Positions 1 to 16,992 of a stretch of 64,000 nt of DNA are shown here, one piece after another (positions within the stretch are counted from its first letter, which is position 1; each line of letters begins with the position of its first letter). The notes below the pieces were generated by a model that was not told the DNA's origin, did not search any database, and worked only from the letters and a program-made list of their open reading frames with translations. Source of the stretch: Gammaproteobacteria bacterium (lineage in GTDB: Bacteria > Pseudomonadota > Gammaproteobacteria > CAJXQU01); the NCBI GenBank assembly GCA_026984775.1, contig JALSRM010000069.1, positions 28,939-92,938 of the forward strand. The letters run 5' to 3'. A program made the position numbers and the translations under genes.

Positions 1-173
1 AAACCTGCGGCAACTGGATGACGGCTATTGCTGTCTTGATCCACTCCAGGCACATGAACTCTGGTCAGCCACTGGCAGCAGAAATGCAAAGAAAGTACTC
101 GAAAGAATGACGGGGTCATCCCTGATCATGCAGGGAGATAACGCGATCCATTGATCAGGTCAAGGAGCCCCCG

Positions 174-1997
174 ATGAGTGAAACAACCGCCCGATGGGAC
201 GAACATGATCCCGATCAGGAAGAACTTGGATTCAGAACAGCAAGTTTTGTTCAAAACGATCTGCTCCTTTCGCTGATCTATTTTGGGCTTATCCTGTTCC
301 TTCCACTGATCCTTTGGAATCATGTAGATGACTATGTTATTTTTCTCTGGCAGGTCGGCATGTTTACCATCTCGGCCATTCGCTGGCTATGCCGCTATAC
401 CATTACCAGTGGGAAAAAGGATAGGACCACTGATGACTTCTGGAACGGTGTTCTTATCTTTCTAACATTGATGGATGGGCTAGGTTGGGGCATTGGCGGT
501 GCCCTGCTCTTCCCCGCAGACTCGATCCTTTCCATGAGCCTGGTTGCACTTCTGCTGATAGGTATTGGTGGGGTAGGTGCTGTCTCTTATTCCGCGAGAA
601 TGTTGATCGCCATCCCCTACCTTTTATGTACCGTGTTGCCGTATATCACCCGTCTCTATGCTACAGGTGGTAATGAAGAGTTTTTGCTTGCCAGCATGCT
701 GGGGTTATTGACCATCATGTTCAGTTTTGCTGCCGATCGGCTGAGCCTGACATTGGGCACTGCACTTCAAATCGATGAACAAGATGAAGAAACCATCTTC
801 GCCCTGGAATCACAAAATGAACACCTCAGTAACATGGTTGAACGGAAAAGAAATCATGTGGCCCATCTTGAAAACGAGCTCACTAACATCACACATGAAC
901 TCGAGAAGGTTCATGGTGTCGTCACCAAACATGAAAAGGACTTGAGTCTTGTATGTGGCCGTATGATCAACCATCTAAACGATCTTGAAACGCTGAAACA
1001 GACATCACTTAACGATGATCAGAGCAAAGTGCTGGTTCGTATGGAAAAAAATGTTCGTTTTCTACTTGAGAGGTTGGGAGAAGATGAAATTGAGGAGGAA
1101 AACACACCCCAAGCTGTTAGTGGTCATGAACCCGCTTACGATAAGGATGAAGCATCTAATTCTCCAGTAGTATTGATTGTAGAGCCTGATAGCCATGAAC
1201 GTGAAAAAATCGAGGCATGCCTGCAAGAACTGAACCTGGACTACACCAGTGTAGAGGATGTCCCTGCTGCTCTATCGGCTCTGTGTCAAGCAGAAGACCA
1301 TTTCGGGTATGAACTCATCATTGCCAGTCTGTACATGCCGGAAATGGATGGAATCGGCTTTGCGGAATGCCTGAAGGATGATCAGGAATTTCAGAGTATC
1401 CGCACCATTCTGACCTATAGCGACAAGCTGCCAAGCAAGAACCGACTGATAAAGGCCGGTGTTGACTGGGTAGTACAAAAAGAGACTCTGAAAGAAGATC
1501 TACCACAGGCCATTGAGAGTCTTGTCAACGGAGAAAGACTTTCACAATTGCCCGCATCTATTGAATCCCTGGTTGAAGATACCATCCAGATATCACTCCC
1601 GCCTGATGAGCAGGAACCAATAACTGCCCCATCATCTGTAGACAAATCTGTACTCGAAGGACTTCGATCATCAACTACCCTCAATTTTATCGAGATCGTC
1701 AACGACTTTCTGGAAGATGCGCCACGATTGATCAGCGAAGCCAGAGAAACCCTATCAAAAAATGACCTTCCAGGTTTGCAAAGATCCATCAGGGAACTGG
1801 GCAATCGCAGTCTGCATATAGGGGCTAACGATCTTGCAGATTTGGCCATGTCGGTTGAATCCGCGATTACCGAAAATGGGATAGACAGAGTGCCTGGCAT
1901 GCTGCAGATGATCGAAGCGGAATTCATCCAAGTCGAGTCAGTACTGCTGGGTGAACTGACCAATGGCGCCCTTGTATCTGACCCGTTTAAACACTGA
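174..1997 (+). CDS. Membrane-anchored signalling protein: polytopic N-terminal sensor-like domain, coiled coil, degenerate receiver (REC) domain and HPt-like C-terminal domain; no kinase domain
   Basis: 607-aa ORF with AAGGAG Shine-Dalgarno just upstream of the ATG. The N-terminal ~190 aa are hydrophobic (motif LMDGLGWGIGG). A heptad-like coiled-coil segment follows. The REC-like block is VVLIVEPDS...ELIIASLYMPEMDG...ILTYSD...VVQKE. The C-terminal block IVNDFLEDAP...GLQRSIRELGNRSLHIGANDLADLAMSVE has the HPt layout. Confidence 0.8.
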   Translation: MSETTARWDEHDPDQEELGFRTASFVQNDLLLSLIYFGLILFLPLILWNHVDDYVIFLWQVGMFTISAIRWLCRYTITSGKKDRTTDDFWNGVLIFLTLMDGLGWGIGGALLFPADSILSMSLVALLLIGIGGVGAVSYSARMLIAIPYLLCTVLPYITRLYATGGNEEFLLASMLGLLTIMFSFAADRLSLTLGTALQIDEQDEETIFALESQNEHLSNMVERKRNHVAHLENELTNITHELEKVHGVVTKHEKDLSLVCGRMINHLNDLETLKQTSLNDDQSKVLVRMEKNVRFLLERLGEDEIEEENTPQAVSGHEPAYDKDEASNSPVVLIVEPDSHEREKIEACLQELNLDYTSVEDVPAALSALCQAEDHFGYELIIASLYMPEMDGIGFAECLKDDQEFQSIRTILTYSDKLPSKNRLIKAGVDWVVQKETLKEDLPQAIESLVNGERLSQLPASIESLVEDTIQISLPPDEQEPITAPSSVDKSVLEGLRSSTTLNFIEIVNDFLEDAPRLISEARETLSKNDLPGLQRSIRELGNRSLHIGANDLADLAMSVESAITENGIDRVPGMLQMIEAEFIQVESVLLGELTNGALVSDPFKH

Positions 1998-2015
1998 CAT
2001 CACAGTCCAAAACAA

Positions 2016-4775
2016 ATGAAGATAAATGGCCAGGAAATCGAACAGGAATATAATGAATCATTCCTGCTCAAAGAGGAGTTGATGAAAAATACGCTTCTGT
2101 ATTTTTTATTTTCTGGTCTGCTTGCAATTTTTATCTATGCAGTCTTGCAAGATCAGAAAATCAATGCACTGCTGCAACCCTGGTTGATCTGCATTGAGGC
2201 AAATACTGCTGTATTGATCATTTTCCATCACTATTTTCGCCGAAAGAGAAAGAATCCATTTCACAGTATATTTTTCTCCATTGGATTTATTATTGATGGG
2301 CTGTTCTGGGGAAGCCTGGGAGTCCTGCTACCGGGGAACATACCTCCAGAAGCACACGTACTCATTATTATGTCGCTGGCAGCTTTTGTTGCACTGGGAA
2401 TACCCCTGATTACCTCCACTTCCTGGCTGGTGGGTATATTCCCTAGTGCAGTATTTTTGCCATCCATATTTTATTATCTTACTGATCTCAACCCTTTATC
2501 GGTCGGTAATGGGCTTGTTATTGCTTCAATTATTCCTGTCATACTCAGAATCACCCGACTCATCCGTGATAACAAATCGCGATCGGACTCACTGGTAAAG
2601 AAACACCAATGGTTGATCAAACAACTCAATGAATTCGTTGAAAGAACAGAGCTGGCCAACCTTGAGCTAAAGAAAGAAATTGCCGAAAGAGAAAAAACCG
2701 AGATCGAACTCCGAAAAGCAAAAGAAGAAGCCGAAGCCGCAGCCAAAGCAAAAAGTGAATTTCTCGCCACTATGAGTCATGAAATACGGACCCCCATGAA
2801 TGGCATCCTTGGCATGGCAGAGCTGCTGATAAAAACTGAACTCAACAGCAAACAGAAACGTTTCGCTGAAACAATACACAAATCCGGTAACGCTTTGTTG
2901 ACGATCATCAACGATATCCTCGATTTCTCAAAGATTGAAGCCGGTAAACTCGAACTCAATACCCGTGTCTTCGACCTGCGACTATTGATCGAAGATATAG
3001 GTGTCATGTTTGCGGAACAGGCCCACCGAAAAGGTTTGGAACTGATCTGTAACTACCCTGCAGATGGCCACTCCATGTTCCGTGGGGATGCTGAGAGAAT
3101 AAGACAGATCCTGGTTAACCTGATTGGTAATGCACTCAAGTTCACAGAAAAAGGTGAGATTCAGCTCAAGGTAGAGCTGTTTGAAAAGAAGGGCAACATT
3201 TTTCTGATCCGTTTCAGAGTTCGGGACACGGGTATTGGTATTTTGCCTGAAGTCCAGGAAAAAATATTCGAATCGTTCTCCCAGGCAGACAGCTCTACGA
3301 CACGTAAGTTTGGCGGTACAGGACTCGGACTGACCATCTGCAAGAAACTGACACAATTAATGAAAGGTACAATAGGCGTGAAAAGTAAACCGGGAAAGGG
3401 ATCGGTCTTCTGGTTTGCTATTCCATTGAAAAAAGAGGCTGATGTTAAACAACCCCTATCCAGACAGGATCTCAAGGGTATTCGTATACTGATTGCTGAC
3501 AGTAATAAAACCAACCGGGAAATTCTTGAACAACAATTTACCAGTTGGGGTATGGATTATTATTCAACCGATAGTGCAAGAACGACACTCCGTGTACTTC
3601 ATAATGCCCAAAAACAAGGCTTCCCCTTCCAACTCGCAATTCTGGACAATCAGCTAAAGGATTTGGATGGTGTAAGTCTCGCACGAAAGATCAAAAATAG
3701 CCCCGACATTGCCGACACCAAACTCATTATGCTGAGCTCTGTTGGCAATATGGAACAGACTGGACAGTGGTTGATGGCAGGTATCGAAAGCTATCTAAAC
3801 AAGCCGATCAGACAAAATGAACTTTACCAGACACTGTTGAATACCATTGACTCTGAGGGATTGAAAAATGATTCCTTTGAGGAGGATCAAATAAATAAGG
3901 AAGAACAAGAAGTTGTCAATCTGAAAGGGCATGTTCTTGTCGCAGAAGACAACCTGGTCAATCAGGAACTGGTCCGGGAGATGTTATCACAACTTGGTTG
4001 TTCAGCCGAGATCGTAGATAACGGACGCAAGGCGGTTGAGGTGCTCACAGAACACTCGCTGGATAATCTGCACAAACCTTTTGATCTCGTCCTGATGGAT
4101 TGTCAGATGCCGGAAATGGATGGTTTTGAGGCCACCCAAAATATCCGACAGTGGGAATCAAGGCAAAAAATTGTACAACGAATACCCATTATCGCACTGA
4201 CCGCCAACGCTATGGAAGGTGATAGAGAGAGATGTCTTGAATCCGGCATGGATGATTACATGACGAAACCTTTTAATCTCGATCAGCTAGGTGCGCTGTT
4301 GCATCAGTGGCTACCACTGTTGGCAAGGGAAAATAACAGTGAATATGTACATAAGATGAATAAAACCTCAACAGAGACGTTCAATGAAGCTGCCGAGGAG
4401 TCTCGTAACGTTGCCCAACTGAATCCTGATGCTCTGAATAACATCCGCAAACAACAGCGGGGAGGGCAGCCCAATATTCTCACCAGAGTGATCCGATTAT
4501 TCCTGGAAAACTCCCAGAAGACCATTCAAGCTCTTGAGACAGCCATCTCCAACGGAGATCCGGTAGCCCTGCAACGAAATGCGTACAGTCTTCGATCCAG
4601 TTGCTCTACCGTCGGTGCAACAGCACTTGCTGAAATTTGTTCAGAACTCGAAACACTAGGCAAGGCAGAAAATGTTGATGAGGCCCAAACACAGTTGAGT
4701 GTACTCGAGTTTGAATATGATGCTGTGTGTATGGCATTGAACAACATTATCAATAGCGAGTTGGAATCTGTATGA
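2016..4775 (+). CDS. Hybrid sensor histidine kinase: membrane N-terminal domain, HisKA, HATPase_c, two REC domains, C-terminal HPt-like domain
   Basis: 919-aa ORF. The H-box ATMSHEIRTPMNGILGMAELL and N/G-box motifs (NLIGNALKFT, RDTGIGI, GGTGLGL) are present. REC1 is IRILIADSN...LAILDNQLKDLDG...LNKP. REC2 is HVLVAEDN...LVLMDCQMPEMDG...MTKPF. The C-terminal block IRLFLENSQ...ALQRNAYSLRSSCSTVGATALAEICSELE is HPt-like. A better SD (AGAGGAG) precedes an in-frame ATG at 2082, so the true start may be 2082. Confidence 0.88.
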   Translation: MKINGQEIEQEYNESFLLKEELMKNTLLYFLFSGLLAIFIYAVLQDQKINALLQPWLICIEANTAVLIIFHHYFRRKRKNPFHSIFFSIGFIIDGLFWGSLGVLLPGNIPPEAHVLIIMSLAAFVALGIPLITSTSWLVGIFPSAVFLPSIFYYLTDLNPLSVGNGLVIASIIPVILRITRLIRDNKSRSDSLVKKHQWLIKQLNEFVERTELANLELKKEIAEREKTEIELRKAKEEAEAAAKAKSEFLATMSHEIRTPMNGILGMAELLIKTELNSKQKRFAETIHKSGNALLTIINDILDFSKIEAGKLELNTRVFDLRLLIEDIGVMFAEQAHRKGLELICNYPADGHSMFRGDAERIRQILVNLIGNALKFTEKGEIQLKVELFEKKGNIFLIRFRVRDTGIGILPEVQEKIFESFSQADSSTTRKFGGTGLGLTICKKLTQLMKGTIGVKSKPGKGSVFWFAIPLKKEADVKQPLSRQDLKGIRILIADSNKTNREILEQQFTSWGMDYYSTDSARTTLRVLHNAQKQGFPFQLAILDNQLKDLDGVSLARKIKNSPDIADTKLIMLSSVGNMEQTGQWLMAGIESYLNKPIRQNELYQTLLNTIDSEGLKNDSFEEDQINKEEQEVVNLKGHVLVAEDNLVNQELVREMLSQLGCSAEIVDNGRKAVEVLTEHSLDNLHKPFDLVLMDCQMPEMDGFEATQNIRQWESRQKIVQRIPIIALTANAMEGDRERCLESGMDDYMTKPFNLDQLGALLHQWLPLLARENNSEYVHKMNKTSTETFNEAAEESRNVAQLNPDALNNIRKQQRGGQPNILTRVIRLFLENSQKTIQALETAISNGDPVALQRNAYSLRSSCSTVGATALAEICSELETLGKAENVDEAQTQLSVLEFEYDAVCMALNNIINSELESV

Positions 4776-4877
4776 GACAGCCCTTCCGGCAGGGTATCTA
4801 AACAGAGAGCAAATCAAGTCTGATGAAAAACGGTCGCTAACAGTCATATCAGATCAGTATTTTGAAACAGAATTTGG

Positions 4878-7061
4878 ATGTTACCTGTCAATGAAGAAAA
4901 AAATAGCCCTTTAATACTCGTCATCGATGATGATGTCACGATCCGTTTCATGATCAATGAAACTCTCGAGACACTAGGGTTCATCGTTGAAGAGGCTGAA
5001 AATGGTATCCAGGGGATTGAACGTGCTAGGGAGCTGAAGCCAGATATCATACTTCTTGATGTGATGATGCCGGAAATGGATGGGTTCACCGCCTGTCCAC
5101 AGATCCGGGAGATACCACACTGCAGACACACACCTGTTTTGATGATGACTGGGCTGGATGATATCGAATCAATCAACAAGGCCTATCAGGTCGGTGCTAC
5201 TGACTTTGCAACCAAACCACTGAATTATACTCTCTTGTCACATCGCCTCCTCTACATGTTACGTTCGAAACAGACAGCTGATGAATTACGTGCAAATCAG
5301 GAAAAACTCGATCATGCACAACGACTGGCCAAACTTGGCTACTGGGAATGGGATCTAAACAATTTTGTTACCTGGTCTGAACAGGTAACAGAAACTTTCT
5401 GGCTCCCCAAAGGCAAGACCTGCGGTGAACTCTCCTACTTCTTTCAGAACCTTCACAAAAAAGACATGGAGAAAGTCCGGGCGGCACTAAAACTGGCCAA
5501 GGAAAAAGAGCAAAATTTCAGTTTGGAATATCGCATCCGAAATCGCGAAGGGAAAGTCCGTATTATCTTTCACGAGGCAAAGGTGAATTACAATGAAGGT
5601 AGAAAACCTATCAGCCTGATTGGAACCATACAAGACATTACTGAACGCAAACGTGCAGAATATGAGATCCAGAAGCTGGCTAATTATGACAAGGTCACGG
5701 GGCTCCCAAACAGAACTTCGCTACGCCAGAAGCTTGAAAAAATTATTGCCAGAGCACCTTCCAGTCAACAAGTAACTGCCATCTTGACGCTCGATCTCGA
5801 TCATTTCAAACGTCTCAACGACACCCTTGGCCATCAGGCAGGAGATCAACTCCTGCGAAAAATTGCCTCCCGCCTGAATGAATTTATTGAAAATAGTGCA
5901 TACGGTTCCGTTGATCTAACCTCGACCAGATTGCAACAGAAAAAGCATGCTCTTGAATTGACACTCTCTCATTTCGGAGGCGATGAATTTGTTATTCTGA
6001 TCGATGGAGCTCCTACAATTGAAAATGTGGCTTCAATTGCACGAAAGCTTAATGAGATCATCGCTGAACCTATCGATTTAGACGGCAATGTTATCTCAAT
6101 GACAGCGAGTATCGGCATTAGCGCCTGGCCTGAAGACGGTAAGGATGTTGATACCCTCCTCAAGCAAAGCGGCTCCGCTCTATACCATGCAAAAAGCGAA
6201 GGCAGGAACTGCTACAAGTTTTTCACCGCAGCCATGAATGCACGCGCTTTTGAGCGTTTGTCTCTGGAAATCAATTTGCGCAAGGCAATCGAAAAAGAGC
6301 AATTCATGTTGTTCTATCAACCAAAAGTAGATGCCCTTTCTGGGAGTATATTGGGTATGGAGGCATTGATCCGATGGAAGCATCCTGAACTTGGCATGAT
6401 ATCTCCGGCGGATTTTATTCCTGTTGCGGAACAGACAGGAATGATCATTCCAATTGGCCAATGGATCTTCGAAGAAGCCTGCCGTTTCCTGAATAAGATT
6501 GAAGAACACAATCTCCCACCTCTTACTGTAGCCCTCAATCTTTCCGGTGCTCAATTTACACAGAAAGGGCTCCCTGAGGAGCTTGGCAATAGTGTTGCCA
6601 AGGCGGGTATCGCCCCTCAGCAGATTGAACTCGAGATCACTGAAAGTCTGTTGATGGAAAATATCGAAGAAGCTATCAAAATCATGAACCGGCTACGAGA
6701 GATCGGGTTTTCAATTGCAATCGATGATTTCGGAACCGGGTATTCCTCTCTCTCGTATCTAAAACGCTTTCCGGCAGCAACTTTGAAAATTGATCAATCG
6801 TTCATTCGTGATATCGACAAGGATGCCGATGATCGCTCTATTGTTCAAGCCATCATCACGCTGGCACACAGCCTGCGCCTCAAAGTGGTTGCCGAAGGCA
6901 TAGAAAAACGCGAACAACTCGCCGTGCTGAGAGAACAGGGCTGCGATCTTATTCAGGGCTATTACTACAGCCACCCCCTCTGTTGCGAAGATTTTCTGGA
7001 CTGGATTAGCAACCGCGAAGACGATCCTGTTGACGAACTTGAAGCGACCATGGCTATATAA
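4878..7061 (+). CDS. Response regulator with REC-PAS-GGDEF-EAL architecture (diguanylate cyclase/phosphodiesterase)
   Basis: 727-aa ORF. The receiver is LILVIDDD...IILLDVMMPEMDG...MMTG...ATKPL. A PAS-like segment follows. GGDEF motifs are RLNDTLGHQAGD and HFGGDEFVIL. EAL motifs are EALIRW, QPKVD, DDFGTGYSSLSYL, KIDQSF and EGIE. Confidence 0.9.
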   Translation: MLPVNEEKNSPLILVIDDDVTIRFMINETLETLGFIVEEAENGIQGIERARELKPDIILLDVMMPEMDGFTACPQIREIPHCRHTPVLMMTGLDDIESINKAYQVGATDFATKPLNYTLLSHRLLYMLRSKQTADELRANQEKLDHAQRLAKLGYWEWDLNNFVTWSEQVTETFWLPKGKTCGELSYFFQNLHKKDMEKVRAALKLAKEKEQNFSLEYRIRNREGKVRIIFHEAKVNYNEGRKPISLIGTIQDITERKRAEYEIQKLANYDKVTGLPNRTSLRQKLEKIIARAPSSQQVTAILTLDLDHFKRLNDTLGHQAGDQLLRKIASRLNEFIENSAYGSVDLTSTRLQQKKHALELTLSHFGGDEFVILIDGAPTIENVASIARKLNEIIAEPIDLDGNVISMTASIGISAWPEDGKDVDTLLKQSGSALYHAKSEGRNCYKFFTAAMNARAFERLSLEINLRKAIEKEQFMLFYQPKVDALSGSILGMEALIRWKHPELGMISPADFIPVAEQTGMIIPIGQWIFEEACRFLNKIEEHNLPPLTVALNLSGAQFTQKGLPEELGNSVAKAGIAPQQIELEITESLLMENIEEAIKIMNRLREIGFSIAIDDFGTGYSSLSYLKRFPAATLKIDQSFIRDIDKDADDRSIVQAIITLAHSLRLKVVAEGIEKREQLAVLREQGCDLIQGYYYSHPLCCEDFLDWISNREDDPVDELEATMAI

Positions 7062-7830
7062 CGCCAGAATAACATCTGAAGTTCTACCAATTCAGCTCAA
7101 GCGGTATGTGTGCCCTGTTCTTTATGCCGATATGCAGAACTGGCATCATAGACCCGCTTTCTGATCCGGTTGAACTGACCAACAGGAGAGAAAAAAGAAT
7201 TTCAATACGCTTCCACTGTTCAGAAATTTGTTATACGACTTGATATCGGGGAAAAGAAGTCGGGATTATCGACCATCAAAAAGCCCTGGGGCGTCACTCC
7301 CTGTGTAAGACCATCTCCTACATTGAAAACATTGAAAACTCGAAAACCTTGATTGCCATATCATGGGCATCCTTTTCCACATCGTGCAAATCGTGAATCC
7401 GTATTGGGAAAACGGGCCCAAGTTTTATACCTTTGCCCCGGTTCCGAGAAGATACCATAGCGCAGATCTTCCGGAAGGTTCTTTTCAATATCAAGTTAGG
7501 CCCTCACACAACCATAAACTTTGGTGTGCATCCTCTACCCGCATAATTCGATCGATTTTTTCAATGATCTGGATTCAACTGACGTTGATTTGGATGAATC
7601 GAATTCTCTGTTTTGGTTTTTTTCTTCTATCTCCTCTTTTCGAGAACAAGAAAACTGAAACCGTCATAGATGATAAAAAATACCAATGACTATGCTCCGT
7701 TTCATGCGATTACTCCCGAACCAACGAAGTAAACGGATAATTCATTGAGGCAATTCCATCTACTGAAAGTTCTGACTGCAAGATTCGGGTCAGCCGATTC
7801 AGATCCATATTAATCGTAGTGGCAATCAGA

Positions 7831-9009
7831 CTATTTTGACTTAGGACTTCCCTGCCCGTTTTTCATCAGCACTTCGGGGCTGGTACCTGAAGGTAATACC
7901 GATGGTTTATTCTGAGCTTCCTTTTGAGTTGAAATATCCGGCTTTTTACCTTTTTCAATGATCAGCTCATCAAGAGAGCGGCGCAACATTTTGCCCTTGT
8001 AGGCAGGCAGTGCATAGACCCAACCACTGGTTTTTCTGCCAAGTATTTCGGCCTGTTCTTTTGCGGAGGGTTTTTTACTCTTGTTGTCTTTTCCTTCAGA
8101 TCCGGACGATGTCTCCTCTCCCTTGTAATCAAAAGAAAATTCTGCCCAGACCTGATCATCGATCTTTGCAGATTTTACCTTCATCACCAGTCCATCAAAA
8201 GTTTCATAAACCGTAGTCAGGGTTTGGTCCGGCCATTTGAAACTCTTTGCACTGTTGACATCATTGAATTGGAGATCTTCGACCACTGATGCGAGGCTGT
8301 TGACAGTAGTCTGGGAGCGAACTTCATATCCTTCTGGAATATTCTGCAACACATAGTCAACATCATCCTTCTCCTTGCGACTGACCCGTACGGTCTTATC
8401 ACCACCATGTTCAATGGTAATGCTTTTCAACCTGTCTGACGCCAGATCGATGAGACTGTTATCCATCCATTCAACAGGCTCATCAGAAAGAACGACTTTG
8501 CCTTTAACAAGATAGGACTGCTTCTCACCGGCTCTACGCACATAGATAGAGTCGACTGTGCCGTCTGAACGGTTGACACGCTCCTTGCCAATCAAGAGAG
8601 AGGCAAGAATATTTCCATCTTTATCCATCAAGGTTACTTGTCTGGACTTCGCTTTTTTGCTCGTGACATCTTCAACCTGTAGTCGGGAATACAACGCTGG
8701 ATTGGCCGTCTTGGCCTCACGAATTTCGAGTTTACTGATGGCTATCACCAAAGGCTTGATACGATTGACAAGTGCCGGATAGCCACCGCGATTTTTCACT
8801 ACCCACTTGTCCCCCAGCTTCTCCAAGGTAACTGTGTTCTTGCCGGTTTTTATCTCGACGCTCGTAATCTGCTGGATTTGATCTGCCAGTTGAGGAAAAA
8901 GTGGTTCTTTTTCCATCACGGTTTCAGGTGAGCGGTGCTGGACTGAAAACCACGCCGCGATTACAAATAACAGCGTAATAATGGCAAATATAGATAATGA
9001 TTTTTTCAT
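7831..9009 (-). CDS. DUF4340-family protein (partner of GldG-like ABC auxiliary component); N-terminal signal/anchor
   Basis: 392-aa ORF with N-terminal hydrophobic helix MKKSLSIFAIITLLFVIAAW. It is the last gene of the ATPase-permease-GldG operon, the position DUF4340 proteins typically occupy. Confidence 0.6.
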   Translation of the reverse strand: MKKSLSIFAIITLLFVIAAWFSVQHRSPETVMEKEPLFPQLADQIQQITSVEIKTGKNTVTLEKLGDKWVVKNRGGYPALVNRIKPLVIAISKLEIREAKTANPALYSRLQVEDVTSKKAKSRQVTLMDKDGNILASLLIGKERVNRSDGTVDSIYVRRAGEKQSYLVKGKVVLSDEPVEWMDNSLIDLASDRLKSITIEHGGDKTVRVSRKEKDDVDYVLQNIPEGYEVRSQTTVNSLASVVEDLQFNDVNSAKSFKWPDQTLTTVYETFDGLVMKVKSAKIDDQVWAEFSFDYKGEETSSGSEGKDNKSKKPSAKEQAEILGRKTSGWVYALPAYKGKMLRRSLDELIIEKGKKPDISTQKEAQNKPSVLPSGTSPEVLMKNGQGSPKSK

Positions 9010-9012
9010 GGT

Positions 9013-10884
9013 TTATCTACGTGCTTTCCGTTTCATTCTGTTGAACAGTGCCATACCAATCGCCAGCAGGCCGATCAGAATTGGTATCAAGCCAATATTG
9101 TAAAACTTCAACCTGTTACCAAGTTGTTCAATACTTTTGTTGAGATCATGTTGGACATTTCGTAATTCCTTGCGTGTCTTGATCTGCTCCTGTTGGAAGT
9201 TTTCGATCGCCTTGCGTTGTTCGGGACTGAGCAAAACACCACCTTTCTCGGAACTCTGGAACTGCAGCTGGCTGATCTTCTCTTCGGTTTCCTTTAGCTT
9301 GGCTTGAAGGGCCTGTTCTCGTGCACGAAACTTCTTCTCGGCTTCCAGTTTTAATTCCTCGACCTTGGTGAACGGTCGTGCATACTGACTGCGACTACGC
9401 AAACTGATCAAATCCTTATTACCACCCAGAACATCGATACTGTTAAGCAAGAATTTCGCATTGTCAGCATGCGGACGTGGCACCCGTTGTCCCATAAAAT
9501 TCTGGAATTGCACCCAGAAGCGATCAGTAAGAATATCAGTATCTGCCACCACGACGATATTGATATCCTCTTTTGACTCCTGGACAAAGGTTGGATCCTT
9601 TTCATCGGACGCAGGCCGTCCTTCTGGATAGGCGGTCTCCACCTTGCCTGTGATTCGTGCAGCAATCACCAGTTCCTTGCCACCCGGTTTGAACTGATCT
9701 ACGAGTACCGAAGGATCCCGTACAAACATAATCGCATCCCTTTCGTAGGGCATGGATTTTTTACTGGTAAAGATCAGTGGTGTAAACGTTGTCTTGGCAT
9801 CTTTCACAGGTTCAAGAAAGCCAGCCGTACCAAGATTGATCAACTGGAGCTGGTTGGTTGAGAAATCATCTTTGTTGAAATGTTCCGGCCCCAGTCTCAA
9901 CCAGGGAATATAGGCAATTTCCTTCGGCCCACGTGGATTTCTTGACTGGACTCTGATCGAGGCATCAAGATCGCCTGCAATTTTTTCTGGATTGAATTCG
10001 ATACCCCATTTATCAAACAGTACTGGCATTTCTGAAAAAATCTGAGGCATGACCATCTGGTTGGTTGGATCGGGCATGGTTTGGTCCGATTCTGCCATGG
10101 GATCGACAAAGATCATCGCCTTTCCACCCTTGAGAATGAACTGGTCGATGGCGTAGAGGGTTTTATCCTTGAGTTTCTTCGGGTGAATCACCAGCAAGGT
10201 ATCGATCTCGGGCTCGATGTAACCTACCCTGACGCCAAGATCTCGCACCTGATATTCACTGCGAAGCATGTCGATAACCGCCCAGGCAGATGAGACTGGA
10301 CGTCCATCCGGCCCATTCTGGCCAAAAACTGGCAGACTGCTGATCACACCGATCACCCGATCTTTCGGATTGGCGAGTTGATAGACCATCTTGGTCAGAT
10401 CATATTCCAGCGACTGTTCCTTTTCCGGCTGAAAAAAGGGAATCGTGATCTCGTCATCCGTGGTGTTGGTACCAACCAGGCCGAAATAGGCATGTTCTCC
10501 ATTACCTCCCATCGGAAGAGGGTGCAGCCCATAACTAACAGCCTCATCTTCAAGATCAGAAAAGGGTTCTGGTTCTGCTACGATCAGCTTTATTTTGCCA
10601 TTTGCAGCTTTTGTGTATTCCTCCAGCATGTCACGCACCCGCGTACCATAGTTCCTCAGGGTTGGAATATCGTTGAGCAACTTGTTGGAAAAATAAAAAC
10701 GCAGTGTGATGGGTTCTTTCAGATCATGGAGAATGTTCTGCGTTCCCTTGGACAGGGTAAACAGTTTGTTCTCAGTCATATCCAACCGCCAGGACGTCAA
10801 TGTGCCACTGACAAGAATGTTAACCGCGAGAAATAGTACTATCGCAAGTCCGAGACTGATTAATGTGATGACCTTCTTACTCAT
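9013..10884 (-). CDS. GldG-like ABC-transport auxiliary component (ABC_transp_aux family)
   Basis: 623-aa ORF with N-terminal and C-terminal TM helices and a large periplasmic domain. It lies immediately downstream of the ABC-2 permease with a 4-nt gap. Confidence 0.65.
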   Translation of the reverse strand: MSKKVITLISLGLAIVLFLAVNILVSGTLTSWRLDMTENKLFTLSKGTQNILHDLKEPITLRFYFSNKLLNDIPTLRNYGTRVRDMLEEYTKAANGKIKLIVAEPEPFSDLEDEAVSYGLHPLPMGGNGEHAYFGLVGTNTTDDEITIPFFQPEKEQSLEYDLTKMVYQLANPKDRVIGVISSLPVFGQNGPDGRPVSSAWAVIDMLRSEYQVRDLGVRVGYIEPEIDTLLVIHPKKLKDKTLYAIDQFILKGGKAMIFVDPMAESDQTMPDPTNQMVMPQIFSEMPVLFDKWGIEFNPEKIAGDLDASIRVQSRNPRGPKEIAYIPWLRLGPEHFNKDDFSTNQLQLINLGTAGFLEPVKDAKTTFTPLIFTSKKSMPYERDAIMFVRDPSVLVDQFKPGGKELVIAARITGKVETAYPEGRPASDEKDPTFVQESKEDINIVVVADTDILTDRFWVQFQNFMGQRVPRPHADNAKFLLNSIDVLGGNKDLISLRSRSQYARPFTKVEELKLEAEKKFRAREQALQAKLKETEEKISQLQFQSSEKGGVLLSPEQRKAIENFQQEQIKTRKELRNVQHDLNKSIEQLGNRLKFYNIGLIPILIGLLAIGMALFNRMKRKARR

Positions 10885-10887
10885 GGT

Positions 10888-11637
10888 TTAACTTGCCTTC
10901 TTAGTATCGATTGCGAGCGTATTGAGATACAGCCACAGTATGATCAACGATGCAAAAAAGATGATGTCGCGGAGATCGATCACCCCTTTCATGATGGAAT
11001 TGAAATGGCTCAGAAAACTGAACGAACTGATCGCATCCAGTATGGACTGAGGTGCCCAGCCACGGAAGAAATCCAGTACCAGTGGGAACCCGCTGAGAAT
11101 AAACAGAAAACAGATCACAACACTGATAACAAAGGCAATTACCTGATTTTTCGTCAGTGCAGAGATACAGGAACCAATGGCGAGAAAACCACCTGCCATC
11201 AACAGACTGCCGATATAGCTGACCAAAATGACCGTGTTATCAGGATCACCGAGGTAATTGACTGTGATCCAAATGGGAAATGTAAGCGCCAAGGCAATCG
11301 CGGTAAAGAACCATGCAGCAAGATATTTTCCAATTACTGCCTCGGTCAAAGTGACGGGTAGAGTCATCAGCAGTTCAATCGTCCCAGTCTTGCGTTCTTC
11401 TGACCACAAGCGCATGGAAATCGCTGGAATAAGAAACAGGTAGAGCCACGGATGAAAGCTGAAGAACGGGATCAAATCCGCCTGATTGCTTTCGTAAAAA
11501 CCACCGATATAAAAAGTAAAGATACCGGTCAGAAAAAGAAAAATTACAATAAAAACATAAGCAACGGGGGTTGAGAAATAGGCCTTGAGCTCACGCCTGA
11601 AAATGGCCCCAACATTGTTCAAGAAAGAACTGCTCAT
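10888..11637 (-). CDS. ABC-2 family transporter permease (GldF-like)
   Basis: 249-aa polytopic membrane protein with six predicted TM segments. Its start overlaps the stop of the upstream ATPase gene. Confidence 0.75.
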   Translation of the reverse strand: MSSSFLNNVGAIFRRELKAYFSTPVAYVFIVIFLFLTGIFTFYIGGFYESNQADLIPFFSFHPWLYLFLIPAISMRLWSEERKTGTIELLMTLPVTLTEAVIGKYLAAWFFTAIALALTFPIWITVNYLGDPDNTVILVSYIGSLLMAGGFLAIGSCISALTKNQVIAFVISVVICFLFILSGFPLVLDFFRGWAPQSILDAISSFSFLSHFNSIMKGVIDLRDIIFFASLIILWLYLNTLAIDTKKAS

Positions 11638-12611
11638 GTCAGATGCTCCTCTTCTGTCAGTTTATCCGGCGCTCCGATGGTGACGTCCCGGAATACCTCG
11701 TCAATACGGCCCGTTTCAACCATCAATTGACTGATCTCCCAACCCTTCTCATGTGCCAAATCACTGATGGTTGCAACGATACTCTGCCCATCCTTCGGGA
11801 TGATCAGCAGTTGTGACAAACCGGCAGGCAATTCTTCGATCTCTACTGACAATACACTGGGGAGGTCTAAAAGCACCATCCGTGCAGCTTCACATTGCCC
11901 TGTATTCATTACCAACGCTACTGCATTGTGGTATTTCGATTTCGCGATCAGTTCAGTCGGAGTTCCGTCAAACAACAGTTTGCCCTTGGCTATAATGATG
12001 GCACGATCACAAACGGCATCGACCTCTTCGAGAATGTGAGTGGAGATGATAATCGCCTTGTCTTTTGCCATTTCCTTGATCAGTGTTCTAACTTCGTGCT
12101 TCTGATTGGGATCAAGCCCATCCGTTGGCTCGTCCATGATCAGGACTTCTGGATCGTGAAGTATGGCCTGGGCCATGCCTACCCTTCGCTTAAAGCCTTT
12201 TGAAAGCGTCTCGATCGGCTGTTCCATCACTCCTTCAATATGGATTTTCTTCACCACATCATCGATCCGCTCCTTCCGGTTACTCCCTTTGAGACCACGA
12301 ATATCCGCAATGAAATTGAGAAAGGAACGCGGTGTCATTTCTCCGTAGGCAGGTGCACCCTCCGGCAGATAACCCAAGACCCGTTTTGCTGCGATTGGCT
12401 CTTCACGAACGTCATGACCACACAGGCTAACCGTCCCCCGGGTTGGTTCGAGAAAACCAGTGATCATTTTCATGGTTGTCGATTTACCGGCACCGTTAGG
12501 GCCCAAAAAGCCGAGAACCTCACCACGCCTGACGGTGAAGGAAACATTGTCCACCGCACGTAGTGAACCGAAATCCTTGACAAGATTATTAACTTCTATC
12601 GCATTTTCCAT
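11634..12611 (-). CDS. ABC transporter ATP-binding protein (GldA-like)
   Basis: Walker A GPNGAGKST, signature LSKGFKRRVGMAQAI, Walker B LIMDEPTDGLD. 325 aa. Confidence 0.9.
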   Translation of the reverse strand: MENAIEVNNLVKDFGSLRAVDNVSFTVRRGEVLGFLGPNGAGKSTTMKMITGFLEPTRGTVSLCGHDVREEPIAAKRVLGYLPEGAPAYGEMTPRSFLNFIADIRGLKGSNRKERIDDVVKKIHIEGVMEQPIETLSKGFKRRVGMAQAILHDPEVLIMDEPTDGLDPNQKHEVRTLIKEMAKDKAIIISTHILEEVDAVCDRAIIIAKGKLLFDGTPTELIAKSKYHNAVALVMNTGQCEAARMVLLDLPSVLSVEIEELPAGLSQLLIIPKDGQSIVATISDLAHEKGWEISQLMVETGRIDEVFRDVTIGAPDKLTEEEHLT

Positions 12612-12740
12612 AAGGGTAATGTAGGCAATTATTATATTTAGCCAGATTCGTTCTTATTTTTGCCGGCAGTTTAAGAGGCGCATTATTTTCCACACAAAAA
12701 AATTGCCGTCAATATACACAGTGAGTAACGACAACTATAC

Positions 12741-14153
12741 TCAGGAATTGTTCCGGGCTGGCATAAAACGGATTGCCAGAACGATCAATAAAATAACCGG
12801 TAGACCCAGCAATGCCGTTCCAGCAAAGAACCTTGCATAACCGATGTTGTCAACAACCAGTCCAGAAAACCCGGCGATAAACTTCGGCAACAGCAACATT
12901 ATTGAGCTGAACAGCGCATATTGTGTTGCCGAATACGCAACGTTCGTCAAGCTGGACATGTAGGCAACAAATGCAGCGGTTGCAATCCCGGCACTGAAAT
13001 TATCAAACGATATCACGCCAGCCAGCCACCAGATGTTATGTCCAATGCCGGCAAGGAGAGAAAACAGCAAATTACTTCCAGCGGAGAGTATAGCACCCAG
13101 CATCAGGATTGGCATAACGCCCCAACGCACAATCATCATACCACCCGCCCCGGCCCCCACGATGGTCATGACCACACCATACACCTTGGTAATACTGGCA
13201 ACCTCACCCTTGGTGAACCCCATGTCGTAATAAAAGGGGTTGGCCATGATGCCAAGAACAACATCCGAAATACGATAGGTTCCGATCAGAAACAGAATCA
13301 CAACCGCCCGCCAACGGTAACGTTTCAGGAAGTCCCAAAAAGGGCTGATGATTGCATCCAAAAACCAACTCAGAAATGCGGTGATCGATTGCGGAAGTTG
13401 TGGGTATCGAGCCATCCAGACAGCAAATTTTTTTCTGCGACGCTCCACATCCTCACTGATGCTGACCTCGGGTTCGGAGATCATGAACGTCGTAACGATA
13501 CCGACCAACATGCAACAGGCCATGCAAAGATATGCGATTTTCCATGGTCGCTGCTCATAACTCGATTCACCGGGATCAAACCACGCAGCTATAGCCAGTG
13601 CTCCCGCCGATGCCAAGATCATCGCCAAACGGTAACCCGTCATATAACTTGCTGACATCGCACCTTGCAACTTCTCTGGTACAGCTTCGATACGGTAGGC
13701 ATCGAGGCTAATATCCTGAGTAGCTGAGGCAAAGGCAACGGCCAGCGCAAACAGCGCCATTAACCTTAGATCAACAGCAGGATCGGTGGTTGCCATTCCG
13801 ACCAAACCTATGAAAATAGCCACTTGGGAAAACAACAGCCAGCTCCTTCGCCGGCCCAAAACTCTACTCAACAAAGGTAAAGGCATACGATCGACCAATG
13901 GCGACCAGCACCATTTCAATGCATAGGCAAGACCAATCCAACTGAAAAAACCTATTGTCGTGCGAGATATTCCTGCTTCCCGCAACCAAAAAGAGAGCGT
14001 ACCGAAGACAAGCAGAAGAGGTAGTCCTGCCGAAAACCCGAGAAACAGCATGCCAACGACACGAGGATTTTTATAGATTGAAAAGGCTTCGCGCCATCTG
14101 CGTATTGTAAGAAGACCCATGATGTTCGCATCATAATCGAAACCCGCCCCCAA
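12741..14153 (-). CDS. ampG: MFS muropeptide permease AmpG
   Basis: The N-terminal region GMLFLGFSAGLPLLLVFGTLSFWLREAGISRTTIGFFSWIGLAYALKWCWSPLVDR...LGRRRSWLL closely parallels E. coli AmpG. 12-14 TM helices. The true start may be the internal Met at 14120. Confidence 0.8.
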   Translation of the reverse strand: MGAGFDYDANIMGLLTIRRWREAFSIYKNPRVVGMLFLGFSAGLPLLLVFGTLSFWLREAGISRTTIGFFSWIGLAYALKWCWSPLVDRMPLPLLSRVLGRRRSWLLFSQVAIFIGLVGMATTDPAVDLRLMALFALAVAFASATQDISLDAYRIEAVPEKLQGAMSASYMTGYRLAMILASAGALAIAAWFDPGESSYEQRPWKIAYLCMACCMLVGIVTTFMISEPEVSISEDVERRRKKFAVWMARYPQLPQSITAFLSWFLDAIISPFWDFLKRYRWRAVVILFLIGTYRISDVVLGIMANPFYYDMGFTKGEVASITKVYGVVMTIVGAGAGGMMIVRWGVMPILMLGAILSAGSNLLFSLLAGIGHNIWWLAGVISFDNFSAGIATAAFVAYMSSLTNVAYSATQYALFSSIMLLLPKFIAGFSGLVVDNIGYARFFAGTALLGLPVILLIVLAIRFMPARNNS

Positions 14154-14267
14154 ACACTACAGAACCCCATTGAAACAAATTGTCAAAATTTTGTCTCTCC
14201 GGTTGAAAATACTGTAGTTTAGCCATAGACTTGTCCCCGTACTCATCAACTAAAAGGAAGAAAGAAC

Positions 14268-15014
14268 ATGAAAAGGACTTTTTTAACTGGGCTTGCTCTA
14301 GCCACACTTATTGCATCAGGCACTGCTTCTGCAGAATATGATCTTGAAGACAACTATATCGGTGGCAGCGATCCACGTGATGTCATTGGGTCAGATGCCA
14401 TTTTCAATACCCTGGGGCTCAATGCTTCAATTACAGGCTCAATCCTCAATGTTGATATCTATACCAACTTCGCTGGGTATGGTGACAACGGTCTCTATTC
14501 TGGTATAACAAATACAGAAGCCAGCGGCTGGGGTAACGGTATAGGCTATGGTGACCTGTTCCTGTCATCTGCCGGTTCCATTGGTGAATGGGAATACGGT
14601 TTTTCTCTCGATAATCGCTGGAGCGAAACAGGGGGATCGGGAAGTCTCTACCTGCTGAATGGACCCAATTTCCTCTACAGTGACGACTTCATCTCTACTT
14701 CAGGTGGTTATCGTACTGGTCATGAAGTCGCCGTTGATACCAGTGCTGCCGATGTTGAAATGGTTGGATACGGCAGCTGGTCCGTCGATAAAAACAATGG
14801 AGTCATCAGCTTTGCCATCCAGATGGAAGATACTGGACTGCCTTACGATAACGGCTTTACATTTGGTTGGGGCATGACCTGTGCCAACGACGTAATACAG
14901 GGTACGGTAGAAATGGATAATTCTGTCGATGTTCCTGAACCCGGCGCCCTCGGGCTTGTGGGTATCGGTTTGATTGGTACATTGGTTGGCCGACGCCGTA
15001 GAAAGGCTGTCTGA
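14268..15014 (+). CDS. PEP-CTERM-anchored secreted protein (putative exosortase substrate), Gly/Ser/Asp/Tyr-rich
   Basis: Signal peptide MKRTFLTGLALATLIASGTASA. The C-terminus VPEPGALGLVGIGLIGTLVGRRRRKAV has the PEP motif, a TM helix and an Arg-rich tail. AGGAAG SD upstream of the ATG. Confidence 0.75.
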   Translation: MKRTFLTGLALATLIASGTASAEYDLEDNYIGGSDPRDVIGSDAIFNTLGLNASITGSILNVDIYTNFAGYGDNGLYSGITNTEASGWGNGIGYGDLFLSSAGSIGEWEYGFSLDNRWSETGGSGSLYLLNGPNFLYSDDFISTSGGYRTGHEVAVDTSAADVEMVGYGSWSVDKNNGVISFAIQMEDTGLPYDNGFTFGWGMTCANDVIQGTVEMDNSVDVPEPGALGLVGIGLIGTLVGRRRRKAV

Positions 15015-15079
15015 TCAGGATCACCTCAATTTATAAGGTCTCTGATTACGTCTTGATTTAAAGACTCCTGTTAAAAGAA

Positions 15080-15118
15080 CCGCTGCCTGGCAGTCTGCTA
15101 GGTGGCGGTTTTCTTTGT
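15080..15118 (+). terminator. Putative bidirectional intrinsic terminator between convergent PEP-CTERM gene and tsaD
   Basis: Imperfect inverted repeat CCGCTGCCTGGCAGTCTGCTAGGTGGCGG followed by TTTTCTTTGTTG. Confidence 0.4.
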
Positions 15119-15154
15119 TGCAGAAATCGCCCTGATCAGAATGTGAATAGGCCA

Positions 15155-16177
15155 TCAGGAATTCTCCGGGAGATGTGCTGGTGGCTGCAACTCATCTAGA
15201 GACCAGCGAGGTCTGGCACCAAAACTCAATCCTTTTTGCTCACCAGCCACGAGCCTGATCGCTCCAGCATAGGCAATCATCGCACCATTATCAGTACAAA
15301 ACTCCAGCCGCGGATAAAAAACATCAGCTTCTAGATCACGAAAACGAGCCCGAAGTTGTCTGTTAGCGCTTACTCCGCCTGCAACCACAAGGTGTCGTAG
15401 GCCAGTCTGCTGTATTGCTCGCTGGCATTTTATGAACAGAGTGTCGAACACTGCCTCAGAGAATGCTCTGGCAATGTCTGCCTTAGTCTGTTGATCCTGC
15501 CTCGACTCTTCCCAGGTATTCTTCGCGAAGGTCTTCAATCCACTGAAACTGAAATCAAGTCCGGGACGATTAATCATGGGCCGGGGAAAATTGTAGATAC
15601 CTGCGTGACCTTCTCTTGCAATTTTTTCGATTACAGGCCCTCCCGGATATCCCAGACCGAGCAGTTTCGCAGTCTTGTCGAAAGCCTCACCCACCGCATC
15701 ATCCAGAGACTCTCCCATAATTGTGTATCGCCCCACGGCTTCTACTTTAACCAGTTGTGTATGTCCACCTGAGACCAAGAGAGCGATAAAGGGAAACTTT
15801 GGCTTCTCCTCTTCAAGCATACATGCAAGCAGATGACCTTCCATGTGGTGGATTCCGACGGCAGGGATCTGCAAACTCCAGGAAAGCCCATGAGCAACAG
15901 AAATACCTACCAACAGAGCGCCTACCAACCCCGGTCCTTCAGTATAGGCTATTCCATCAATCGCGTTGAAGTGAATGTTCGCTTCGTCGGAAACCTCTTT
16001 TATCAAAGGTACAATCCTTCTGATATGGTCACGGGATGCCAACTCCGGAACAACACCACCGAAGTGAGCATGCATATCTACCTGACTGAACAGGGCGTGA
16101 GATAACAAGCCTTGATCGGTATCATAAATAGCAACCCCTGTCTCGTCGCAGGATGTTTCAATACCTAAAATGCGCAT
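15155..16177 (-). CDS. tsaD: tRNA N6-adenosine threonylcarbamoyltransferase TsaD
   Basis: [19 protein letters not shown]... with metal-binding His motifs (HHMEGH). Divergent from rpsU as in E. coli. Confidence 0.95.
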
Positions 16178-16265
16178 ACTCTTTGCTTTTCTCCTCTTTA
16201 GCCACTAGAATAATGCGCCTTTTCATCTTTGTGAAACTTTATTTTTAGACTAACAGGAATAACGA

Positions 16266-16481
16266 ATGCCATCAGTTAAGGTAAGAGAAAACGAACCTTT
16301 TGACATTGCACTGCGCCGCTTCAAACGTGCGTGCGAGAAAGCGGGTATCCTTGCGGAAGTCCACCGCCGTGAATTCTATGAGAAACCCGCACAGGAAAGA
16401 AAACGTAAAGCTGCTGCTGCGATCAAACGCTGGCAGAAAAAGGCCTCCAGAAACAGCCTGCAAAGAAAACGCTTGTACTAA
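16266..16481 (+). CDS. rpsU: 30S ribosomal protein S21
   Basis: [41 protein letters not shown]... 71 aa. Confidence 0.95.
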
Positions 16482-16497
16482 GCGACAGTCCAACACA

Positions 16498-16950: not shown

Positions 16951-16992
16951 CAATCATTCTCCTCTCTATGGCATAGCGGTTATACTGGCGCT

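Follow-up and report, generated by a model that had tools for sequence, protein, structure and literature searches.

A three-gene gammaproteobacterial cluster with the domains of a phosphorelay to c-di-GMP turnover and a predicted break at its HPt step

Can a set of genes that encodes all the domains of a four-step phosphorelay work as one when residues that should carry the phosphoryl group have been replaced? The question is raised by three consecutive, co-oriented open reading frames (ORFs) on the forward (+) strand of a gammaproteobacterial contig: ORF1 (positions 174–1997, 607 aa), ORF2 (2016–4775, 919 aa) and ORF3 (4878–7061, 727 aa). The stretch of DNA analysed, hereafter the window, comprises 64,000 nt (contig JALSRM010000069.1, positions 28,939–92,938, forward strand; GCA_026984775.1). 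It is chromosomal DNA of an uncultured gammaproteobacterium, with large ORFs and tRNAs further along, and the related loci come from metagenome-assembled genomes labelled Gammaproteobacteria. No source product names are on record for ORF1–3, and none of them has an equivalog in NCBIfam. An initial annotation, which placed the three genes exactly, saw in them a multistep phosphorelay ending in the turnover of cyclic di-GMP (c-di-GMP), and remarked that several relay residues looked degenerate.

The degeneracy is real: both histidine phosphotransfer (HPt) domains lack the phospho-accepting His and the ORF1 receiver lacks the phospho-Asp. The losses extend across the clade in both ORF1 and ORF2, in agreement with the earlier caution that no textbook His-Asp-His-Asp relay could be wired from these proteins. 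We favour, with confidence that stands about midway between doubt and certainty, a reading of the cluster as a clade-specific, three-gene version of a wider module formed by a six-transmembrane (6-TM) hybrid kinase and a REC-PAS-GGDEF-EAL regulator, where ORF1 would be a non-phosphorylatable accessory protein and the HPt step would have been bypassed or repurposed.

The hybrid kinase ORF2 and its regulator ORF3

ORF2 is a membrane hybrid histidine kinase, and Pfam recovered in it, as had been described, HisKA, HATPase, two receivers and an HPt domain; all Pfam domain calls given here are above the curated cut-offs, well in excess of what chance would give. Its membrane domain (residues 1–195; 2016–2600) belongs to the same family as that of ORF1 (BLASTP E 2e-4, hhalign E 3e-6). 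The kinase core (2748–3431) is composed of HisKA (residues 245–310, with H255; 84 bits) and HATPase_c (residues 357–472; 106 bits), and the H-box SHEIRTPMNG, together with the residues of the N, G1, F and G2 boxes, is invariant among 10 orthologues. With an H-box His plus an ATP-binding CA domain, as a relay kinase should have, ORF2 is predicted to be the sole catalytically competent kinase of the cluster. The two Response_reg stretches reach 151.8 bits and the Hpt match (residues 825–904) 47.6 bits; the best NCBIfam similarities, TorS and BarA, are both below cut-off.

The two receivers of ORF2 differ in their active sites. A pseudo-receiver has been defined as a computationally recognised receiver fold in which one or more of the five active-site residues are missing, and an aspartate-less receiver as one that lacks the acceptor Asp (PMC12632262). 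In a residue survey, REC1 (residues 486–611; 3471–3848) appeared as a degraded receiver: its acidic pair is ADS, ADN or ADA instead of DD in 16 of the 17 orthologues, 12 orthologues have D as the acceptor and five have E, and it reads LKDLDG where the other receivers of the cluster have MPEMDG. The loss of an acidic-pair residue in those 16 orthologues places REC1 among the pseudo-receivers. In more distant relatives the acceptor is D in 103 out of 103 and the acidic pair is mostly DD. REC2 (residues 640–760; 3933–4295) keeps the canonical quintet E644, D645, D695, T729 and K751, invariant in the orthologues, so that the internal canonical receiver of a relay would be REC2 and not REC1.

It is at the HPt-fold domain of ORF2 (4488–4727; Pfam, phmmer) that the relay seems to be interrupted. 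Tyr857 stands opposite the phospho-His in phmmer alignments to solved HPt proteins. We surveyed this position in the 120 best homologues of ORF2, 116 of which align over the HPt domain, namely 17 orthologues (at least 55% identity) and the next 99 relatives. The phospho-site is Y in 16 orthologues and T in the remaining one, and it is H, with the motif AHSLKSSSANLGA, in 97 of the 99 relatives. The Lys usually found three residues downstream is likewise present in 97 of the 99 relatives, and is replaced by a relaxed set (Q/R/K/H/A) in the ORF2 clade. The remainder of the domain is strongly conserved. The HPt folds of ORF2 and ORF1 thus both lack the phospho-accepting His with its usual Lys at +3.

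Two other hybrid kinases homologous to ORF2, P0210 and P0213, have lost the HPt His independently, with AAKLAKASARLGA and TGKLAKASARLGA at this place; His-less HPt domains therefore recur, in about 2% of the close relatives sampled.

ORF3 is the receiver-PAS-GGDEF-EAL fusion that had been recognised initially, with REC at residues 13–122, PAS_3 at 164–251, GGDEF at 268–445 and EAL at 467–700 (Pfam; 96, 140 and 272 bits for receiver, GGDEF and EAL). Its best NCBIfam similarities, DibA, DosP and PleD, are all below cut-off. Residues D17-D19, D61, T91 and K113 of the receiver are invariant in the orthologues, which is what a terminal regulator with a canonical receiver would show. The motifs GGDEF, EALIR, DDFGTGYSS, KIDQSF and EGIE are intact across all orthologues and an RxxD I-site, looked for upstream of GGDEF, is not present. 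By the integrity of these motifs, both enzymatic domains are predicted to be active, and phosphorylation would control their activity. In one distant relative of ORF3, the GGDEF motif is degenerate (SAGDEF) and the EAL domain intact; hydrolysis may be the core output, because the EAL site is conserved even there. ORF3 can be assigned, from its domains and position, to the REC-GGDEF-EAL regulators encoded beside a kinase (RavR/PdeR type).

The Pfam GGDEF domain of ORF3 is split by an insertion of some 20 aa (5870–5960, residues ~332–360), situated between the helix that follows DxLxHFKxxND and the strand with GGDEF. This insertion is a conserved feature of the clade; locus L017 has a shorter one and L018 has none.

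The kinase-less paralogue ORF1

Homologues of ORF1 are few: we retrieved 14 full-length proteins from 5.8 billion clustered proteins, a number that rose to 17 when 1.84 billion representatives were searched exhaustively with phmmer. A structural model was built with AlphaFold2 (AF2) on the alignment of the 14-sequence family. ORF1 had been described as a membrane protein carrying only receiver-like and HPt-like domains; both domains were found by Pfam, so that every domain named for the cluster was recovered, and what does not hold is the word only, since there are also a 6-TM domain and a helical hairpin at the position of a dimerisation and histidine phosphotransfer (DHp) domain.

The membrane domain (residues ~13–198; 210–767) consists of six helices joined by very short loops (13–47, 53–80, 87–112, 118–139, 143–164 and 167–198 in the AF2 model). 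The BLASTP alignment between ORF1 and ORF2 runs over residues 25–156, and profile comparisons with hhalign match this domain to the ORF2 orthologues (probability 88–90%, E 2–3e-6) and to related hybrid kinases (99%, E 1e-18). A phmmer search with residues 1–320 of ORF1 gave 946 representative clusters at E ≤0.001. In ten sampled members, the domain is fused to HisKA-HATPase, to hybrid kinases with HPt, to PAS-GGDEF or to PAS-GGDEF-EAL, and no Pfam model covers the six-helix N-terminus in any of the ten. It thus seems to be a widespread, unnamed, membrane-embedded input module and a candidate for a named sensor domain; the tiny loops suggest that it senses something in or at the membrane.

Following the membrane domain, the hairpin (residues 202–302; 777–1079) is formed by a helix at 202–275, a turn and a helix at 281–302 (AF2, pLDDT, or predicted local distance difference test score, ~80). 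The turn, LKQTSLNDDQ, aligns with LIKTELNSKQ of ORF2 in one register in three independent profiles, in matches that are weak (hhalign E 0.001–0.014, probability 3–18%). The hairpin can be called DHp-like by its modelled shape and position, and may be homologous to DHp domains. The residue equivalent to the H-box His is S258, with His in six of the 17 homologues. Pfam detected no ATPase or ATPase-like domain in ORF1, and there would be no room for one because the hairpin and the receiver are only ~30 residues apart.

The receiver of ORF1 (residues 331–450; 1164–1523) is called by Pfam as Response_reg at residues 333–448 (42.4 bits, cut-off 30.2). The acceptor site, in the canonical D-x-x-M-P, is Ser; of the 17 family members, 16 have N/K/S/T there and one has Asp. 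By its sequence, this domain is an aspartate-less pseudo-receiver in the sense of PMC12632262. It is nearer to receivers of the REC1 type (hhalign E 1e-21 to 1e-27) than to those of the REC2 type (1e-16 to 1e-19), and is poorly predicted by AF2 (pLDDT 45–69).

The C-terminal HPt-fold domain (residues 490–600; 1641–1973) was identified by Pfam (Hpt, residues 507–583, 27.7 bits, cut-off 24.6), AF2, Foldseek and hhalign. A single-sequence search of this region against the PDB gave irrelevant helical proteins as top matches (EzrA, E3 ligases), with HPt entries only at E 0.06 or weaker; since this search proved uninformative, the identity of the domain was settled by fold search and profile comparison. 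The model is a four-helix bundle (pLDDT ~90) and its top Foldseek match is HptB from P. aeruginosa (7c1i; TM-score 0.90, root mean square deviation 1.9 Å). R539 falls at the phospho-His position in the hhalign comparison with canonical HPt domains (probability 98%). That position is occupied by R/K/S/Q in all 17 homologues, with no His in any of them, and the usual Lys at +3 is replaced by an invariant Gly. The family motif is ELGxRSxHxGA, of which the part G-x-R-S-x-H-x-G-A is invariant; its His, H548, lies at +8 from the canonical phospho-His position.

In its overall composition, ORF1 resembles one of the family's hybrid kinases stripped of the ATPase domain and one receiver, and its residues identify it as a predicted signalling-dead paralogue of that kinase family. 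A recent tandem duplication of ORF2 was considered as its origin and is not supported, because the domains of ORF1 are no closer to the ORF2 orthologues than to distant family members; they even score higher against the latter, to which profile diversity may contribute.

At the C-terminus of ORF1 (1989–1994), an invariant Lys-His (…LKH) is found in the 14 closest homologues; the divergent protein of locus L015 has a longer and different tail.

Linkage, history and neighbouring genes

The genes are separated by 18 nt (ORF1-ORF2) and 102 nt (ORF2-ORF3). We recovered 12 loci carrying ORF1 (window/L001, L002–L013, L015), 10 of which extend past ORF2: ORF2 lies directly 3′ of ORF1 in all 12, and ORF3 comes directly next in all 10. 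Contigs of 2.9 and 3.3 Mb are among those with the cluster (ENA ERZ25073254 ctg89727; ERZ25072999 ctg321970). Far from being routinely unlinked, ORF1–3 stay together wherever the locus is long enough, as the initial annotation had anticipated. Its proposal of a relay ending in c-di-GMP turnover holds in that this linkage, and the kinase-regulator pairs of distant relatives described below, point to one signalling unit; it fails in making ORF1 a relay protein. Scans of the cluster found promoter-like sites no commoner than in shuffled sequences and nothing convincing as an internal terminator, and an Rfam scan of positions 1–8000 found neither a riboswitch nor any other RNA.

We examined two outgroup loci, those of P0209 and P0218 (43% identity to ORF2), which belong to a group of about 11 near relatives of ORF2 (P0206–P0223) with its membrane domain and an intact HPt His. 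Each of the two adjoins a REC-PAS-GGDEF-EAL gene that shares 45–46% identity with ORF3 along the whole length, in opposite gene order and in unrelated genomic contexts, and there is no ORF1-like gene at either locus. The simplest history compatible with these sequences would be a self-sufficient two-gene relay as ancestor; in one lineage, the kinase-dead ORF1 would have been gained and the kinase would have lost its HPt His.

Upstream of ORF1, the window opens with the 3′ end (1–154, + strand) of ORF0, a conserved hypothetical gene of 189 aa cut by the window edge and complete in L001 (560–1129). Its stop codon is 19 nt upstream of the ORF1 ATG. The product starts with MSxVMLHTPDTALWHAL and has no Pfam family; 22 homologues were found. 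ORF0 lies between glyQ and ORF1, and the order ORF0-ORF1-ORF2-ORF3 is kept, with short gaps, across the recovered loci. ORF0 is probably co-transcribed with ORF1–3 and stands outside the module. We considered it as a fourth member of the system and rejected it, as its homologues occur without ORF1–3, beside glyQS in L016 and next to bipA and glnA in L014. The order in L016 is glyS-glyQ, ORF0, a 5′-nucleotidase gene and DUF4340-ABC; this joint absence indicates that ORF1–3 act as one unit of insertion or deletion.

The flank downstream of ORF3 varies, with DUF4340/ABC transporter genes directly, an LCAT-like lipase, or a catalase plus a RoxA-like cytochrome. In the window, ORF3 is followed, at a distance of 770 bp, by the convergent DUF4340 gene; the gap (7062–7830) contains only a dubious ORF of 108 aa (7363–7689), and tblastn detected no remnant of the LCAT-like lipase in 7041–7860. 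The convergent genes on the minus strand (7831–12611) encode DUF4340, ABC_transp_aux/DUF7088, an ABC-2 permease and an ABC ATPase. Most relatives have this set of four next to the cluster, and L016, without ORF1–3, has it too. Near the ORF0 homologue of L014 there is, on the opposite strand (12736–17586), an unrelated FIST / PAS-kinase / REC-GGDEF-EAL cluster, another kinase-to-c-di-GMP module. Further along the window, Rfam matched the Pseudomonas small RNA P26 at 55953–56003 (minus strand; 37.2 bits, gathering threshold 36), just past an ORF of 1371 aa (51755–55870).

Signal flow, rival explanations and known systems

From domain content, residue states, homology and linkage, we infer the following phosphotransfers and protein contacts. 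ORF2 would sense a membrane-associated signal through its 6-TM domain, autophosphorylate at H255 and pass the phosphoryl group to D695 of REC2, steps that are suggested because the catalytic residues are intact and invariant. A textbook HPt step would then be impossible, because Tyr in ORF2 and Arg in ORF1 occupy the phospho-His site. The phosphate would reach ORF3 directly from the DHp His of ORF2, or from a factor outside the cluster, with REC2 as an internal sink or switch; D61 of ORF3 would be the final acceptor, its phosphorylation shifting the output between c-di-GMP synthesis (GGDEF) and hydrolysis (EAL). Since ORF1 has no ATPase domain, phospho-Asp or canonical phospho-His, it would not be a relay station; it may act as a membrane-embedded accessory or co-sensor that modulates the kinase/phosphatase balance of ORF2. 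The common 6-TM domain would, together with the DHp-like hairpin, mediate its pairing with ORF2, after the fashion of RetS on GacS or of a pseudokinase, a contact that we propose from the common membrane domain and from the modelled position of the hairpin. Modulation of one kinase by another via DHp heterodimers is found in RetS-GacS (PMC8498467), and pseudokinases without a CA domain can modulate the signalling of a paralogue (PMC9491836). The His-less HPt folds may serve as docking surfaces for receivers, without carrying phosphate.

Several points weigh against this reading. Helix alpha-1 of the ORF3 receiver, as read by eye in the sequences, is much like that of the relatives' regulators; these presumably dock on a functional HPt domain, so that a complete change to docking on the DHp domain is less likely. 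The hairpin of ORF1 matches DHp domains only weakly, at the hhalign values given above, and H548, an invariant His on an HPt helix, may be a phospho-site. The association between the gain of ORF1 and the loss of the ORF2 His is a single evolutionary event seen against two outgroup loci. Finally, the genome was viewed over 64 kb, and a stand-alone HPt protein may be encoded elsewhere.

A bolder interpretation, which we find possible while leaning clearly against it, is that bacterial His-less HPt folds serve for phosphorylation-independent docking of receivers: the Tyr-HPt of ORF2 and the Arg-HPt of ORF1 would bind the ORF3 receiver or REC2, tethering the output enzyme at the membrane or releasing it according to the phosphorylation state of REC2. 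The phosphorelay would have been turned into a partner switch, on which the kinase-dead ORF1 would act as another sensor in the membrane. In a stronger variant of this docking idea, H548 of ORF1 would be a relocated phospho-acceptor.

Relocation of the His also leads to an explanation that keeps the relay, in which an RcsD-like ORF1 would take the phosphate from REC2 of ORF2 on H548 and hand it to ORF3, the HPt His of ORF2 having been lost because ORF1 took that step over. The invariance of H548 and of its motif in all 17 homologues, the confinement of ORF1 to the clade whose ORF2 HPt has no His, and the well conserved (59% identity) and confidently predicted HPt fold of ORF1 are in its favour, and in the atypical hybrid kinase CCNA_03265 the catalytic His has been suggested to have moved within its helix (PMC11481889). 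Nevertheless, the matching site is polar in canonical relatives (N in 77, S in 12 and T in six of 99) and T in the ORF2 orthologues, and in the AF2 model H548 is at the C-terminal end of helix 532–549, beside the GA turn, and not mid-helix; its invariance can be structural and needs no catalytic explanation. The +8 position also points ~80 degrees away from the canonical His face, and the Lys that usually follows the phospho-His at +3 has no equivalent near H548. We consider this relocation decidedly unlikely. It is unlikely, too, though a little less so, that ORF3 receives its phosphate from the product of a gene in another part of the genome, either a stand-alone HPt protein or a different kinase, with the His-less HPt folds and ORF1 acting as receiver decoys of the AHP6 type. 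REC2 and the ORF3 receiver are both canonical, as in relays with a separate HPt protein such as ShkA-ShpA-TacA (10.1101/675454), plant His-less HPt proteins are described as competitive inhibitors, and our inspection covered only 64 kb of the genome. However, no further HPt, receiver or DHp domain occurs anywhere in those 64 kb, an external HPt protein would have had to be newly recruited to a two-gene module that was self-sufficient through the HPt His of its kinase, and targeted full-text literature searches found no bacterial pseudo-HPt decoy.

The remaining explanations concern the origin of the parts. The initial annotation took an MPEMDG signature, thought to be distinctive and common to three receivers, as a sign that these arose by duplication within the cluster, and the three proteins as a multistep relay in gene order. 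The motif is indeed present in ORF1, ORF2 REC2 and ORF3, that is, in three receivers out of four, and among the cluster receivers the one from ORF1 is most like ORF2 REC1 (24 bits; hhalign E 2e-21). The motif is, however, a generic receiver consensus, found as DVMMPGMDGFT in PleD from Caulobacter and as LDWHMPEMDG in dozens of unrelated hybrid kinases, and therefore it does not indicate duplication. For ORF3 the idea is already contradicted, its receiver scoring ~70 bits against PleD, more than 50 bits against dozens of solved receivers and only 17–38 bits against the other receivers of the cluster. As the domains of ORF1 are, in addition, no nearer to the ORF2 orthologues than to distant family members, and ORF1 has no phosphorylatable relay residue, in-cluster duplication with a relay in gene order seems very improbable. 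Still harder to credit is that ORF1 has no function and is what is left, in decay, of a kinase gene that was once duplicated. In favour of this, its ATPase domain, one receiver and every phospho-site are gone, and it evolves faster than its neighbours (~50% identity to orthologues, versus 64% for ORF2 and 71% for ORF3). Against this, all 17 homologues are intact full-length ORFs down to 36–43% identity, and conservation follows the domains (mean identity 58% in the transmembrane region and 59% in the HPt domain, versus 16% in one linker), with many invariant positions. This pattern contradicts the remnant idea and indicates that ORF1 is under constraint.

Among known systems, ORF2 shares the order transmembrane region-HisKA-HATPase-receiver-HPt with unorthodox hybrid kinases (ArcB, BarA/GacS, TorS, EvgS), from which it differs by the Tyr or Thr of its HPt domain, the relaxed partner Lys, the presence of two receivers, the first one degraded, and a 6-TM input domain that has no Pfam model. 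The pair ORF2-ORF3 resembles RavA/RavS-RavR from Xanthomonas campestris and PdeK-PdeR from X. oryzae (PMC6707612) in the association of a kinase with a GGDEF-EAL regulator and in the c-di-GMP output; the likeness concerns pairing and output logic, and those kinases are not HPt-bearing hybrid kinases and no kinase-less paralogue has been described for them.

The pair ORF2-ORF1, in turn, is reminiscent of RcsC-RcsD-RcsB, in which a hybrid kinase stands beside a non-autophosphorylating, kinase-derived membrane protein ending in an HPt domain. In RcsD the HPt His is functional and forms a step of the relay, a degenerate ATPase-like region is kept and there is no receiver, whereas ORF1 has neither the functional HPt His nor an ATPase-like domain and carries an Asp-less receiver; the NCBIfam RcsD model did not match ORF1. 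The transmitter domain of RcsD is without the conserved His (PMC3842833). RetS-GacS from P. aeruginosa, where two proteins of the kinase family contact each other directly through DHp helices instead of forming a linear relay (PMC8498467), is our model for ORF1 acting on ORF2; RetS, in contrast to ORF1, retains a HisKA-HATPase region along with two receivers; its sensor domain is of another type, and its gene does not adjoin gacS.

ShkA from Caulobacter (DHp-CA-pseudoREC1-REC2) has the same core order as ORF2, and the REC1 domains of both have an incomplete acidic pocket with the acceptor Asp often retained, a comparison that concerns order and pocket only. ShkA is soluble and, unlike ORF2, lacks an HPt domain and relies on ShpA, a separate protein. 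In ShkA, c-di-GMP binds to the alpha4-beta5-alpha5 face of REC1 and there is a DDR motif in the REC1-REC2 linker (10.1101/675454). The matching domain order raises the idea of c-di-GMP feedback on ORF2, in whose linker no DDR motif was seen by eye. Lastly, plant pseudo-HPt proteins of the AHP6 type retain, as ORF1 and ORF2 do, an HPt fold under selection without the phospho-accepting His; they differ in being eukaryotic and soluble, with a single domain and Asn in place of the His, and have no evolutionary relation to ORF1 and ORF2. Our targeted full-text searches on His-less HPt domains retrieved only papers on these plant proteins and no inhibitory case from bacteria.

As a kinase-to-c-di-GMP module, the cluster is of a known kind. 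Its new part would be a relay break that appears fixed and selected, along with a kinase-dead paralogue predicted to lack both the phospho-Asp and the phospho-His. Phosphorelays are usually deduced from domain content; here the content is that of a four-step relay, and the residues make the third step impossible. The HPt His loss is fixed, under selection across the clade and coincident with the gain of the kinase-dead paralogue. Pseudo-receivers are common, while conserved His-less HPt domains in bacteria have been little described, and matches to Hpt and Response_reg in an annotation do not ensure relay competence. The N-terminal 6-TM module, with some 950 representative clusters, is fused to kinases and c-di-GMP enzymes. 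If the HPt folds of this clade act by docking or as decoys, they would be a bacterial counterpart of the plant pseudo-HPt proteins, and the cluster would be a natural rewiring of a phosphorelay into an interaction switch that controls c-di-GMP.

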